64,000 nt of DNA, taken from contig CALWBA010000107.1 of NCBI GenBank assembly GCA_944375815.1, forward strand, positions 1,083 through 65,082, in the 5' to 3' direction. The translations under genes were made by a program, and so were the position numbers. The stretch is from an uncultured Lachnospiraceae bacterium (lineage in GTDB: Bacteria > Bacillota > Clostridia > Lachnospirales > Lachnospiraceae). The notes below the pieces were generated by a model. That model saw nothing but the letters and a program-made list of their open reading frames with translations, had not been told where the DNA came from and searched no databases. How positions within the stretch are numbered: the first letter of the stretch is position 1; each line of letters begins with the position of its first letter. Below are positions 5,735 through 10,662 of the stretch, in pieces.

Positions 5735-5911
5735 ATGCCGGGTAAAGGGAAACCGCAGCGTGCGGCTTCCCTTTTTTTGATCACCGTTTTTTCACATTTT
5801 TATCCCAATTTCATCACACTTCCACTATATTTTTTTCACAGACTTTCTTTATACTATAGCCATAAAAACAAAAAGAAATACAAATCAGACATTCCAAAGG
5901 AGGAATCATAT

Positions 5912-7246
5912 ATGTCAGATTTCAAAGATTATACAGATTACACAGAAAATGAAAATAATGGTTTTGAGATTACAGAGATGCCGAAGCAGAAAAAACCGCA
6001 TAGAAAACTTCCGAAGAAAACTTCCGCTCTTATGAAAAAAGCCGGAGCAATTACATTAAGTGCCATGCTCTTCGGCGGTGTTGCGGCAGGTGCCTTCCAG
6101 GGTGTAAATTATCTGTCCGGCTATAGTACGAATACATCGTCAACAACTCAGCAGACCAGCCTGATCAGAACAACTGCAACCGGCGGTTCCTCAGATGCTG
6201 CAGGAAGCCTTGATGTATCAGACATTGCTTCTGCGGCAATGCCTTCCATCGTATCGATTACTAATAAATCTGTACAGGAAGTTCAGTCCATCTTCAATTC
6301 TTTTGGATACAGCTACCAGCAGCCTCAGACTGAGGAAACAGAAAGCTGCGGTTCCGGTATTATCATCGGAAAGAATGATACCGAGCTCCTGATCGTAACA
6401 AACAATCATGTAATCGAGGGCTCGGATACTTTATCCGTAAGCTTTATCGATAATCAGGTCTGCGAGGCCCAAATCAAGGGTACAGACGCAGACAATGATC
6501 TTGCTGTTATTGCAGTTCCTCTGGACAGCATTTCCTCGGACACTATGTCCAGCATTGCAGTTGCTACTCTTGGAAACTCCGATGAACTGCAGGTCGGCGA
6601 GCAGGTTGTTGCGATCGGAAACGCACTCGGTTACGGTCAGTCCGTGACTACCGGCATTGTCAGTGCCACAAACCGCTCTCTCAGTTCTTCCGAAGACGGT
6701 TCCGCTGACACGAATGCCACCTATATTCAGACTGACGCAGCAATCAATCCGGGCAACAGCGGCGGTGCACTGCTGAACATGAACGGCGAGGTCATCGGTA
6801 TCAATTCTGCAAAACTTGCCTCTACGGAAGTGGAAGGTATGGGTTATGCAATCCCTGTATCAAGGGCAAGCGACATCATTGAGCGTCTGATGAATGAAAC
6901 AACACGCACCAAAGTCTCCGAAGATAATCAGGGAACCCTTGACATACAGTGCAGAGATGTATCCAGCGAGCTGAGCAGCGCTTACGGTATCCCTGAAGGT
7001 ATATATGTTGCTGAAGTCAGCAAAGGAGGCGCAGCTGAGCAGGCTGGTATCAATCAGGGCTATGTGATCACCAAATTCGATGGCAATTCCGTAACCACAA
7101 CGCAGCAGTTAAAAGATAGACTGCAGTATTATGCATCCGGCGAGAAGGTAACCATTACCGTACAGGTTCCTGATAACGGATCCTATTCGGAACAGACACT
7201 TGACATTACGCTTGGAAGCTCTAATACAAATCATGCTGCAGCTTAA
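5912..7246 (+). CDS. htrA: Membrane-anchored HtrA/DegP-family serine protease with C-terminal PDZ domain
   Basis: Catalytic triad contexts TNNHVIEG / DNDLAVI / GNSGGAL. PDZ domain (GIYVAEVSKGGAAEQAGI). One N-terminal TM helix (AITLSAMLFGGVAAGAF). Start moved to MSDFKDY after AAGGAGG. Confidence 0.85.
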   Translation: MSDFKDYTDYTENENNGFEITEMPKQKKPHRKLPKKTSALMKKAGAITLSAMLFGGVAAGAFQGVNYLSGYSTNTSSTTQQTSLIRTTATGGSSDAAGSLDVSDIASAAMPSIVSITNKSVQEVQSIFNSFGYSYQQPQTEETESCGSGIIIGKNDTELLIVTNNHVIEGSDTLSVSFIDNQVCEAQIKGTDADNDLAVIAVPLDSISSDTMSSIAVATLGNSDELQVGEQVVAIGNALGYGQSVTTGIVSATNRSLSSSEDGSADTNATYIQTDAAINPGNSGGALLNMNGEVIGINSAKLASTEVEGMGYAIPVSRASDIIERLMNETTRTKVSEDNQGTLDIQCRDVSSELSSAYGIPEGIYVAEVSKGGAAEQAGINQGYVITKFDGNSVTTTQQLKDRLQYYASGEKVTITVQVPDNGSYSEQTLDITLGSSNTNHAAA

Positions 7247-7269
7247 ACATAGATAACCATTTAATGCAG

Positions 7270-7300
7270 GACGGCACATCCGAAAGGTTGTGCCGTCTTT
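7270..7300 (+). terminator. Intrinsic terminator after htrA
   Basis: GACGGCACA-N10-TGTGCCGTC (9-bp perfect stem) followed by TTT. Confidence 0.7.
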
Positions 7301-7333
7301 AAATGTGAAATAATTCCGTATACCGTTTTATCC

Positions 7334-7361
7334 TTGCATTTTTCTCTGCGTATGCTACACT
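7334..7361 (+). promoter_or_regulatory. Putative sigma-A promoter of the retron transcript
   Basis: TTGCAT (7334-7339), 16-nt spacer, TACACT (7356-7361). The predicted start lies a few nt before repeat a1. Confidence 0.4.
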
Positions 7362-7370
7362 GAAGGTAAC

Positions 7371-7385
7371 ACGCGCAAAGGTACA
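7371..7385 (+). repeat. Retron inverted repeat a1
   Basis: Reverse complement of 7556-7570 except one position, which gives a G-U pair in RNA. Confidence 0.75.
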
Positions 7386-7555
7386 GCGTTCACAGTCTTT
7401 TCTGTGGGGGAAGCGAGTCGCTTTCCTGTTTTTTACTCCGGGACGGCTTCGCCCGCCCTGCGTCAGCTCCGATGTACGGCGGGCATGGACATGCCCGTTC
7501 CCAGCCTTCCGGCTGGTTCAGCACACCTGCACTGTCTTTGGTATCATCTTTTTTG

Positions 7556-7570
7556 TGTACCTTTGTGCGT
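7556..7570 (+). repeat. Retron inverted repeat a2
   Basis: Partner of a1 (7371-7385). Confidence 0.75.
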
Positions 7571-7601
7571 CTGATAATTTACTGACAACTGCGGAGGGAT
7601 T

Positions 7602-8570
7602 ATGCAGATGAATGTATGGAAATATTGCAGCAGAGAACAGGAACAGGCGTTTTTGCTGTCTTTGGATCTTGCCGGAGGGCTTACCGCATCCCGCAAAAAG
7701 CAGGCCGCCCTGCTTTATACACTCTCTAATCATGCCGCAGATCACTACCGGCGTGTCCGCATTCCAAAGAAGAATGGCGGTTTCCGCTCTCTTGACGTAC
7801 CGGATCACCTCTTAAAAACGGTTCAGAAGCGTATTCTGACACAGCTTCTTGAGCAGCTTCCCGTTTCCCCCTGCGCGTGTTCTTACAGAAAGGGAATATC
7901 TCTGCTCGAAAATGTATCACCGCACACGGGAAAACGTTGTGTTCTGAAGCTGGATATTCGAGATTTCTTTGGAAGCATTACTTATATGTCCGTCTACAGT
8001 TTCGCCTTCCCCAGCGAGTTCTTCCCGCCTGCTGTGCGCACACTGCTTACGCATTTATGCTGCCTTCATGACACTCTTCCTCAGGGTGCCCCCACCTCTC
8101 CGTATATATCAAATCTGGTAATGGCCCCCTTTGACCGGCATATGATCAACTGGTGCAAATCCCGCGGCATCACATACACCCGTTACTGTGATGATCTGAC
8201 ATTTTCCGGAGATTTCAACCCAAAAGAGGTAAAGTCATACACCGAAAGTTTTCTGCTGCGTTTAGGTTTTGAACTGAACCAAAACAAAACCCGTTTCTTT
8301 TCCTCATCGCACCGCCAGGAAGTCACCGGGATTGTCGTTAACTCCCGCCCTCATCTCCAAAAAACCTATCGGAGAAAACTTCGTCAGGAATGGTATTTTC
8401 TGAAAAAGTTCGGCCCTGAAGAACATTTGAAACATATGGGGTCTTGCCTTTCCCCGGATAAATACCTGCAAAGTCTGGAGGGACGCATCCGTTATGTGCT
8501 CACCATTGATCCGAATGACAGTGAATTTATAAAGATGCTCCATGAATTGCATTCTTTTCGTTCTTCATAA
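7602..8570 (+). CDS. Retron-type reverse transcriptase (322 aa, stand-alone)
   Basis: RT motifs IPKKNGGFRSL, LDIRDFFGSI, LPQGAPTSPYISNLVM, YTRYCDDLTFSG (YxDD), ELNQNKTRF (NxxKT), and the retron-typical VTG (EVTGIVVN). GGAGGG SD upstream. No fused extra domain. Confidence 0.85.
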   Translation: MQMNVWKYCSREQEQAFLLSLDLAGGLTASRKKQAALLYTLSNHAADHYRRVRIPKKNGGFRSLDVPDHLLKTVQKRILTQLLEQLPVSPCACSYRKGISLLENVSPHTGKRCVLKLDIRDFFGSITYMSVYSFAFPSEFFPPAVRTLLTHLCCLHDTLPQGAPTSPYISNLVMAPFDRHMINWCKSRGITYTRYCDDLTFSGDFNPKEVKSYTESFLLRLGFELNQNKTRFFSSSHRQEVTGIVVNSRPHLQKTYRRKLRQEWYFLKKFGPEEHLKHMGSCLSPDKYLQSLEGRIRYVLTIDPNDSEFIKMLHELHSFRSS

Positions 8571-8578
8571 ATTAAAAA

Positions 8579-8616
8579 CTGCCGCACCGACTGAATTATC
8601 GGTGCGGCAGTTTTCT
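8579..8616. terminator. Bidirectional intrinsic terminator between the RT and ohyA
   Basis: CTGCCGCACCGA-N8-TCGGTGCGGCAG (12-bp perfect stem) flanked by AAAAA and TTTT. Confidence 0.8.
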
Positions 8617-8628
8617 GCCTTTTATGTT

Positions 8629-10599
8629 TTACAGCATTCCTTCTTTGATTACATTATGATCCCGAAGTACTTTTTCTATTACTGTCCCTTTCAGCATCTT
8701 AAACAGCGGCTTTTTGAGGACATTTAACGGTCCGGGGAGTTCGATTTCCAGGGGAGATCGGCCGTCCATCAGGCGTACAGAACTTTCCAGAAGTTCTCGT
8801 ATATCGTATACACTGCCCCAGACTTCCGGGACACCGCGGTCTACTCCCAGCAGACCATAGACTGCTTCCATTGCGGTACGAACGGAGTATTCTGTCGTAA
8901 ATACGGTATCTCTTGGAGTTTCGGCAAATTGTCCGAGGAAGGCAAAGTTCACACATCCATCCGGTATTACGTCCGGACGGTCGCCTTTTGTTCTGGGCAT
9001 GAAGAAGGCTGTGATATACGGCATCATGGTAGGTACACAGACTGCACTGTTCTTAGCAAGTTCCGGAATCTGCTCCACCGGAACACCGATATGATACAGC
9101 CACTCTTCTGTAATCTCCATCCCGGTGCACTCTTTCATCGGTTTCTTCACAAAGTCTCCCGGAACATCTGTAAACAGCCCGTATACCCAGACGCATACCT
9201 TCTCCGGCTCCTGCTCCTTAAATTGTCCCTGGCGGTTGATTGTCCAGCTCATCAGCCAGCTCGAATCGCAGCAGCTTACAATTCCTCCGGTCACAACTTT
9301 GCCGCTTCTGGGATCTCTTTTACAGATATTTGTGATATATGGAAGGATCTTATCATCCAGTGTTGTCACGGTTGCCGACTCCCAGTTTGTCTTCGCGATG
9401 TCTGAGCAGAACTTTTCGGGATGTCCGAATGCCGGATCCTGCTTGGCAATATTTTTCCACAGATTCCAGCAGCCGCTTGTGCTCACCTTGGCGTCTCCAT
9501 TCGGCGCATGATTGTGATCGCCGTAAATGGTTCCCTCTGTGCAGCTTCCGTTGGTCACAAATACAAGGTCGTTTTCTGTCAGAAGGATTCCTTTCTCAAT
9601 GCCCTTCACTCTGCACTCAATCGCAGAGGCAATTTTACTGCCGTTTTTGAACTCAAATACTACATTTGTCACTTCGGTATTAAACTGGAAATCCACACCT
9701 GCATTCTCCAGATACTTCTGCATCGGTAAAATCAGTGATTCATACTGATTATATCTTGTGAATTTGAGTGCGCTGAAATCCGGCAGCCCTGCAATATGGT
9801 GGATAAATCTCTGAAAATACAGTTTCATCTCCAGTGCGCTGTGCCAGTTCTCAAATGCGAACATGGTTCTCCAATACAGCCAGAATGTGGACTTGAATAC
9901 CTCGTCGTCAAACACATCCTCTATTGTCTTATCATAAAGGTCCTCATCTTTTGTCATAAACAGCTTCATAATTTCCATGCAGCCTTTCTGACTCAATCCA
10001 AATTTTCCGTCTGTATGTGCGTCCTCGCCGCGGTTTACAGTCGCGCGGCAGAGTGAGTAATTCGGATCATGCTTATTCAGCCAGTAAAACTCATCCAGCA
10101 CAGACGCACCCGGTTTCTCCAGAGACGGAATGCTTCGGAACAGATCCCATAAACACTCAAAATGATCCTCCATCTCTCTGCCGCCGCGCATAATATAACC
10201 GCGGTTCGGGTCAAAAATTCCATCGCAGGCTCCTCCTGCTACATCCATCGCCTCCAGAATATGAATGTGATTGCCCGGCATCTGTCCGTCTCTTACCAGA
10301 AAGCACGCTGCTGCAAGCGCCGCAAGTCCGCTGCCTACTATATAAGCGTTCTTATCTTCCACACCCTCCGGTTTCTCCGGCCTTGCAAACGCCTCATAAT
10401 TACCCTTGGTATAATAGATGCCCTTACTATTTTTCTCGTGCATCCCCAGTTCCGTATTACGGTAGCTGCTGGTATCCTGCTCCATTTTTTTCGTCGCCTC
10501 ACGGCTGCTGTCTTTTGATTTCTTTGCAAGCACCGCTGCTGCTCCGGCTCCTGCGAGCACTGCGGATGCCACAGTAAATTTCACACTTTTCTTAGCCAT
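8629..10599 (-). CDS. ohyA: Oleate hydratase (FAD-dependent fatty-acid double-bond hydratase, MCRA family) with an N-terminal hydrophobic extension
   Basis: NYEAFARPEKPEGV, the FAD fold IVGSGLAALAAACFLVRDG, and MCRA-like sequence over the full length. Start placed at MAKKSV after AGAGGG. Confidence 0.85.
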   Translation of the reverse strand: MAKKSVKFTVASAVLAGAGAAAVLAKKSKDSSREATKKMEQDTSSYRNTELGMHEKNSKGIYYTKGNYEAFARPEKPEGVEDKNAYIVGSGLAALAAACFLVRDGQMPGNHIHILEAMDVAGGACDGIFDPNRGYIMRGGREMEDHFECLWDLFRSIPSLEKPGASVLDEFYWLNKHDPNYSLCRATVNRGEDAHTDGKFGLSQKGCMEIMKLFMTKDEDLYDKTIEDVFDDEVFKSTFWLYWRTMFAFENWHSALEMKLYFQRFIHHIAGLPDFSALKFTRYNQYESLILPMQKYLENAGVDFQFNTEVTNVVFEFKNGSKIASAIECRVKGIEKGILLTENDLVFVTNGSCTEGTIYGDHNHAPNGDAKVSTSGCWNLWKNIAKQDPAFGHPEKFCSDIAKTNWESATVTTLDDKILPYITNICKRDPRSGKVVTGGIVSCCDSSWLMSWTINRQGQFKEQEPEKVCVWVYGLFTDVPGDFVKKPMKECTGMEITEEWLYHIGVPVEQIPELAKNSAVCVPTMMPYITAFFMPRTKGDRPDVIPDGCVNFAFLGQFAETPRDTVFTTEYSVRTAMEAVYGLLGVDRGVPEVWGSVYDIRELLESSVRLMDGRSPLEIELPGPLNVLKKPLFKMLKGTVIEKVLRDHNVIKEGML

Positions 10600-10662
10600 A
10601 AATACTACCCTCTTTCTGTATTTCATGGCCCTATCCTACCGCACTTTCCTCCCTGCGCCAAT

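Follow-up and report, generated by a model that had tools for sequence, protein, structure and literature searches.

An Ec107-like orphan retron, probably intact and vertically inherited, between htrA and an oleate hydratase gene in a Lachnospiraceae bacterium

This study concerns a retron encoded in a 64,000-nucleotide stretch of DNA (the window) from an uncultured Lachnospiraceae bacterium (GenBank assembly GCA_944375815.1, contig CALWBA010000107.1, positions 1,083 to 65,082 of the forward strand). The unit lies at window positions 7334-8614 and consists of a promoter-like site, a 200-nt noncoding RNA (ncRNA), a reverse transcriptase (RT) of 322 amino acids and a strong bidirectional terminator. 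Comparison with related sequences indicates that it is, with high probability, an intact and vertically inherited retron of the Ec107-like ('clade 2 orphan') kind, and that its two-part state is apparently ancestral. Neither the window nor the related genomes encode an effector in cis, and the two genes that flank the retron, htrA and an oleate hydratase gene, are unrelated housekeeping neighbours. The missing effector is real, but it is a known hallmark of the Ec107 lineage and not a new anomaly; the locus is a further member of an already recognised lineage of orphan retrons.

Retron defence systems characterised so far all need an effector protein or domain. A preliminary description of this locus took published surveys to portray retrons as tripartite (ncRNA, RT, and an adjacent or fused effector), a generalisation that does not hold for all of them. 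Mestre et al. (2020) identified the 59 RTs of the Ec107 branch in clade 2, together with clade 11, as lacking any associated protein cluster, and called such elements 'orphan retrons'. A 2026 SPIRE survey likewise lists 192 'clade2_Ec107like' loci in which a recurrent accessory architecture is scored 'absent'. Retron-Ec107 (also Retron-Eco5) of Escherichia coli is a compact insert that replaces a 34-bp intergenic palindrome, with no prophage link and no mobile element nearby. Millman et al. omitted Ec107 from their phage assays, and in an experimental census clade 2 RTs and their ncRNAs, assayed without accessory genes, ranked with the best producers of RT-DNA. We found no functional test of Ec107 or of the orphan retrons in the published literature.

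The assignment to this lineage begins with the RT, whose position is as follows.

7602 to 8570, + strand: retron RT, 322 amino acids, with a GGAGGG ribosome-binding site upstream and no fused domain.

The only Pfam domain in this protein is RVT_1 (residues 54-245). It is matched by 73 PADLOC retron RT profiles, the best being RT_Ec107-like (2.9e-132, 438.7 bits), which aligns residues 13-317 of 322 with profile positions 2-305 of 307. A match of that extent leaves no space for a fused domain, in keeping with what had been claimed for this 322-residue protein at the outset. The next-best profiles are those of RT_III-A, which begin at 324.2 bits and 2.1e-97 and range to 5.3e-81. The best 120 homologues of the RT, 266-381 residues long, all carry PF00078 only, and the closest solved structure is the RT of retron Ec86 (8.7e-35). 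Both the catalytic and the retron-specific motifs are present and intact, namely a YCDD box (residues 195-198), VTG (241-243) and, in region X, NVSPH (104-108), the last of which departs from the family consensus NAxPH by a change of A to V at its second position. The RT of E. coli Retron-Ec107 (locus L089; NZ_CP043414.1, 163482-164441) is of nearly the same length, 319 residues, and shares 48% identity with the window RT across 300 residues (E = 1e-98); each protein carries YCDD where YADD is usual, a substitution that a review describes as a peculiarity of Ec107. Profile scores and pairwise identity together place the window RT beside Ec107 and apart from the other retron types. Between pyrE and slmA, the E. 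coli genome that we examined has the RT as its sole annotated gene. Both elements are compact inserts among housekeeping genes, neither bears the hallmarks of a mobile element and neither has a recurrent accessory gene; they differ in site, pyrE/slmA in E. coli against htrA/oleate hydratase in the Lachnospiraceae gut bacterium.

The second component is the ncRNA, for which we compiled an alignment (A2) of 30 sequences: the window, E. coli Ec107 and 28 other loci. Its parts, all upstream of the RT gene, are listed below.

7371 to 7385, + strand: a1 arm, ACGCGCAAAGGTACA, a 15-nt inverted repeat that pairs with a2 (helix 1).

7386, + strand: predicted branching (priming) G, directly 3' of a1 in an invariant A-x-A-G (column G19 of A2).

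7391 to 7406 and 7407 to 7427, + strand: msr hairpins, the first variable, the second with a conserved apical GCGAGUCGC.

7438 to 7555, + strand: msd, the putative template of the multicopy single-stranded DNA (msDNA), multi-branched, with invariant or near-invariant columns in A2 and containing helix 3; both ends are approximate predictions.

7556 to 7570, + strand: a2 arm, TGTACCTTTGTGCGT, a 15-nt inverted repeat with a1.

The preliminary description had placed an ncRNA beside the RT, and this is well borne out by the a1/a2 repeat and by the predicted fold. A 206-nt segment is predicted to fold with an energy of -90.1 kcal/mol (z = -6.2; none of 200 shuffles did as well) into the classic retron layout, comprising an a1/a2 stem, a pair of msr hairpins and a branched msd, while the complement of the msd, folded as DNA, reaches -25 kcal/mol (z = -2.6). 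The window ncRNA can be aligned with the msr-msd of Ec107, with which it has in common the invariant priming G, the GCGAGUCGC element and several blocks of msd sequence; the GCGAGUCGC element, comprising the closing pairs and loop at the apex of the msr hairpin, is kept in sequences ranging from Lachnospiraceae to E. coli Ec107. The shared context makes G7386 the likely priming residue. Across three helices in A2, 95.3% of cells are paired; shuffles give 72.6%, with none of 500 as high as the real alignment, and sliding the partners lowers the figure to 33-52%. Compensatory double changes occur in 24 of the 28 pairs, including 9 of 10 in helix 2 (msr) and 10 of 12 in helix 1 (a1/a2), where the covariation is partly true by construction because the sequences were selected for their a1/a2 repeat; helices 2 and 3 are unaffected by that choice. 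RNAalifold, applied to a MAFFT alignment, reported no helices beyond these three. Rfam holds no model for this ncRNA, and neither an E-value scan of positions 6800-9200 nor a gathering-threshold scan of the whole window returned a retron ncRNA, the latter giving one tRNA only.

Parts of the msd show conservation of sequence in addition to that of structure, from Lachnospiraceae to E. coli, Neisseria and Saezia (A2 columns ~141-262), in blocks that include CTCCGATGTAC, GCACA..TGTGC, GCCTxCGGC and GTACAxCTxCGCA. This conservation hints that the msd sequence may be read by a conserved partner or by the RT itself.

An effector-less pairing of RT and upstream ncRNA had earlier been likened to DRT2, in which a UG2 RT and an ncRNA act with no separate effector and rolling-circle cDNA encodes Neo. 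Beyond the two-part arrangement, the analogy finds no support. The match of the window RT to solved Drt2 structures is weak, with 5.6e-07 across 75 residues, whereas the retron Ec86 RT is matched at 8.7e-35, and the ncRNA of the window has the a1/a2 arms and invariant priming G of a retron. A concatemeric open reading frame (ORF) of the DRT2 kind was rejected, as the template region of the 30 loci contains no conserved reading frame, falls into no length class and shows no tendency to a length that is a multiple of three.

In the same region (window 7463-7582, A2 columns 96-262, 30 loci), stop trinucleotides (TAA, TAG, TGA) are rarer on the RNA-sense strand than in dinucleotide-preserving shuffles (52 versus 92.7 +/- 6.7), and 53 of 90 frames are free of stops where 33 are expected; the significance of this depletion is overstated, as the sequences are related and share conserved blocks.

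To establish whether an effector accompanies this RT elsewhere, we gathered 80 genome loci with RTs 42-79% identical to that of the window, which with eight metagenomic loci and the window itself made 89. Most are from Lachnospiraceae, the others from Bacilli, Budvicia, Pragia, Leminorella, Neisseria and Saezia. Clustering of all ORFs within 9 kb of each RT revealed no recurrent partner gene among the 89 loci; only ubiquitous paralogue families recur, the largest non-RT clusters being ABC ATPases, AraC-type response regulators and ABC permeases (25, 23 and 17 loci, respectively), with PfkB kinases among the further ones, all at variable distances. The genes immediately beside the RTs are diverse housekeeping genes, among them DHDPS, YchF, MazG, MarR, a formate/nitrite transporter, beta-galactosidase, TatD and alpha-amylase. 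Within the window, PADLOC identified no known retron effector or defence gene among the other 59 ORFs; its matches outside the RT are ABC-transporter ATPases, a weak glycosidase-like match (GlgB model) and the protease domain of HtrA. The absence of an adjacent effector, already remarked upon in the preliminary description, therefore extends to relatives in 80 genomes, none of which points to a conserved neighbour. No adjacent or fused effector recurs beside homologous RTs, as it would in a tripartite system, and the lack of any recurrent accessory gene is what distinguishes the orphan lineage.

Among these relatives, two Ec107-like RT loci (L036 and L053) fall in one bin, the metagenome-assembled genome DWUW01 of Ca. 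Eisenbergiella stercorigallinarum. The ORF caller found no intact RT frame over the match at L053, so that this locus may be a second, possibly disrupted, copy.

That the unit persists in working order is suggested by its pattern of divergence. Against its orthologue in L009 (79% identical, at the same site), the RT has a dN/dS of 0.077, an approximate value because dS is about 1.7 and near saturation; the corresponding figures for HtrA and the hydratase are 0.041 and 0.027. The site of the retron remains constant within host clades while RT identity falls to 54-79%, as seen at the Blautia amylase/TatD, Mediterraneibacter DHDPS and Lacrimispora two-component sites, in the Budviciaceae and at the htrA/hydratase site itself. 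The G+C content of the retron equals that of its flanks. A constant site, a diverging RT and a flank-like composition form the pattern of a long-resident, vertically inherited module under selection. In E. coli, Ec107-type RTs occur in 382 of 5,426 complete genomes, always in single copy and always on the chromosome.

These data bear directly on the proposal, also raised in the preliminary description, that the locus is a degenerate remnant. In its most specific form, this proposal sees in the retron a leftover, either without function or purely selfish, of a type III-A system (RT with a PRTase-like and a winged-helix protein, for example Retron-Eco11) that has lost its effector. The RTs of the two types are sister groups within one clade of Mestre et al., who placed the Ec107 branch beside the PRTase-linked RTs and suggested that a partner had been lost, and RT_III-A is the second-best profile for the window RT. 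Partner loss may well be how the Ec107 lineage arose. As an account of the present locus, the proposal is contradicted by purifying selection on the RT and covariation in the ncRNA, which argue that the unit is not a remnant: dN/dS is low, the motifs are intact, the helices covary in 30 genomes, and the site is kept through the divergence described above. The RT_III-A score, moreover, is some 115 bits below that of the Ec107-like profile, and neither a PRTase-like nor a winged-helix (wHTH) gene was found beside the RT or in the 64-kb window. We consider a non-functional or selfish remnant very improbable.

A different form of decay is suggested by a sister lineage. In Ca. Egerieimonas faecigallinarum (L009), which occupies the same htrA/hydratase site, an intact gene of 562 codons (7510-9198), encoding PF09820 (AAA-ATPase-like) and PF08011 (PDDEXK_9) domains, overlaps the stop codon of the RT gene by an ATGA at its start. 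The same gene is decayed in L001 and L002 (2739-4037), where it contains an in-frame TGA and has lost the nuclease domain through a deletion of ~446 bp, and it is absent from the window (8570-8629). One could read this series (intact, decayed, absent) as the progressive loss of a nuclease effector that the ancestor at the HtrA/MCRA site possessed along with the RT. The P0002 lineage speaks against such a reading. There, the RT is followed after 26 bp by the hydratase, without the PF09820 gene; the RTs of P0002 and of the L009 type share 87% identity, and the window RT is 79% identical to either. Given the tree (window,(P0002,P0003)), parsimony favours a single gain over two losses. At loci outside the L009/L001/L002 lineage, no PF09820 homologue lies within 10 kb of the RT, and the closest homologues of the gene (74-77% identity) number in the thousands in Lachnospiraceae, in unrelated contexts with no RT. 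The gene matched no PADLOC model, and the window RT is under purifying selection without it. We judge the PF09820/PDDEXK_9 gene to be a recent, lineage-specific insertion that is already decaying, and its loss from the window as an ancestral effector to be unlikely. The preliminary description had foreseen that homologous RTs might stand beside an effector simply lost here; such a neighbour does exist in one sister lineage, but it is not a known effector and appears to be a recent arrival, and nothing comparable was seen elsewhere. The PF09820 family as a whole is very abundant in Lachnospiraceae, with at least 8,000 homologues at E <= 1e-30.

The limits of the unit are set by the following features.

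7270 to 7297, + strand: hairpin 3' of the htrA stop codon, with a 12-bp stem (7270-7281/7286-7297) that is 92% complementary, a 4-nt loop and then TTT only.

7334 to 7361, + strand: promoter-like site, with TTGCAT at 7334-7339, a 16-nt spacer and TGcTACACT as an extended -10 (hexamer 7356-7361).

8575 to 8614, both strands: bidirectional intrinsic terminator, 16 pairs (9 G-C), an 8-nt loop and T-rich tails on both strands.

The first of these is probably a weak htrA terminator that forms the left boundary of the retron unit. The hairpin at the position first described (7270-7300) is there, but its strength as a terminator, though plausible, is low, and the terminator scan left it unlisted because its T-run is short. 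The promoter-like site, ~10 nt 5' of a1, fails a consensus scan because its -35 matches at only 3 of 6 positions; a TATGCTACACT block is kept at this point in L009 and L096, the two closest lineages, and the site may well act as a promoter. On the right, the 12-bp bidirectional terminator originally drawn at 8579-8616 proves to be the G+C core of the 16-pair hairpin, which the RT gene has in common with the convergent oleate hydratase gene.

Pfam domains confirm the identity of the two neighbours, which are the only ones, as first reported: a same-strand HtrA-type protease (Trypsin_2 and PDZ) upstream and, on the opposite strand downstream, an MCRA-family oleate hydratase. The two flank the RT solely in the window's own lineage. 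HtrA itself might be proposed as the effector, in a split version of the type XI retrons, whose RT is fused C-terminally to a trypsin-like protease, for its gene directly precedes that of the window RT, in the same orientation and at a distance of 356 bp, and its trypsin-like domain matches the protease part of RT-Protease_XI (6e-13). Such a match, however, is expected of any Trypsin_2 domain, and the protein is a separate, full HtrA/DegP-type protease with PDZ. Its gene is followed by a hairpin of its own, and then by the putative retron promoter, before the RT is reached. The RT ends at residue 322, belongs to another clade and scores 227 bits on RT-Protease_XI compared with 438.7 on RT_Ec107-like. 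HtrA adjacency is, furthermore, confined to 4 of the 89 clustered loci, those of the window and of the Egerieimonas lineage, together with P0002-lineage contigs at the same site, and an HtrA found beside the RT in its own lineage only argues that the type XI match is one of generic trypsin fold. We regard a role for HtrA as the effector as extremely improbable.

The remainder of the window is core chromosome, with a trehalose PTS, a folate operon, rpoBC, EF-Tu/EF-G and a V-ATPase. The longest ORF for htrA (5735-7246, 503 aa) begins right after the stop codon of the upstream GntR/UTRA regulator gene; as its orthologues are called at 444-447 aa, the true start is likely to be ~55 codons downstream, near MSDFKDY. 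The oleate hydratase (8632-10626) is unusually conserved, being 94.5% identical to that of L009, for which the RT and HtrA next to it reach 76-80%; across many gut metagenome contigs (L105-L184) with differing neighbours its identity is 80-89%. A search of 80 metagenome loci with a hydratase at 80-89% identity for an empty site, in which htrA would stand beside the hydratase with no retron, returned none. No HtrA or RT is near the hydratase at any of these loci, and for that reason they do not define the insertion boundaries of the retron.

From these components, and by homology with characterised retrons, a course of events can be proposed. The promoter at ~7334-7361 would drive a single transcript that carries the msr-msd (7371-7570) and ret (7602-8570) and ends at the hairpin at 8575-8614. 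The a1/a2 stem and the two msr hairpins would position the RT, which would prime from the 2'-OH of G7386 and copy the msd into a branched msDNA with a predicted length of ~105-118 nt. For the E. coli element, and for it only, msDNA production has been documented, along with induction of expression by starvation. It is conceivable, and we suggest it tentatively, that the complex of RT and msDNA is itself the working unit, acting on or through a widely conserved host or phage component with no dedicated effector. This suggestion draws on the fixed sites among housekeeping genes, the distribution across Bacillota and Pseudomonadota without a co-travelling gene, and the conservation of parts of the msd in sequence as well as in structure.

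Several points weigh against the interpretation offered here. The step from the absence of a cis partner and a conserved msd to a conserved host or phage factor is one that we infer. The scan covered 64 kb of the genome, so that a dedicated effector may lie elsewhere. The overlap of the RT and PF09820 genes in L009 looks operonic and could mean that a partner has been lost in the window. To these may be added the approximate nature of the dN/dS value and the selection of sequences that favours helix 1.

The second of these points underlies the alternative that the retron is an ordinary toxin/antitoxin-type defence system with its third part in trans, a dedicated effector being encoded, unlinked, elsewhere in the genome. 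Every characterised retron defence system depends on an effector, only 64 kb of DNA was inspected here, and Mestre et al. left open whether orphan retrons rely on effectors in trans or on a different mechanism. The same authors, on the other hand, noted that most genomes with orphan retrons have no homologues of known retron-associated proteins, and there is no defence-type gene in the window. Members of the lineage are present in Lachnospiraceae, Bacilli, Enterobacterales, Neisseria and Saezia, where their sites are unrelated and no gene travels with them, and a partner both unlinked and dedicated is difficult to square with such a distribution. An effector in trans is, in our estimation, possible and yet rather doubtful.

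What an Ec107-type retron does without an effector is a question that has stood since Retron-Ec107 was described and that was flagged in the 2020 classification, and the window locus leaves this picture unchanged. The comparison narrows the options, since it argues against a remnant and against an adjacent effector that was simply lost. Those that remain are a partner in trans and an effector-independent mechanism, both of which are most easily testable with Ec107 in E. coli, where the 382 carriers among 5,426 genomes offer a ready data set for co-occurrence with unlinked genes. The Ec107-like retrons could, as a possibility that we hold with reserve, constitute an effector-independent class in which the RT-msDNA complex has as its direct target some universally conserved component of the host or of phages; their msd is partly conserved in sequence between Lachnospiraceae and E. 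coli, and poor in stop trinucleotides on the RNA-sense strand. On that view, these retrons would persist as modules of the chromosome that are inherited vertically, in contrast to mobile abortive-infection systems.

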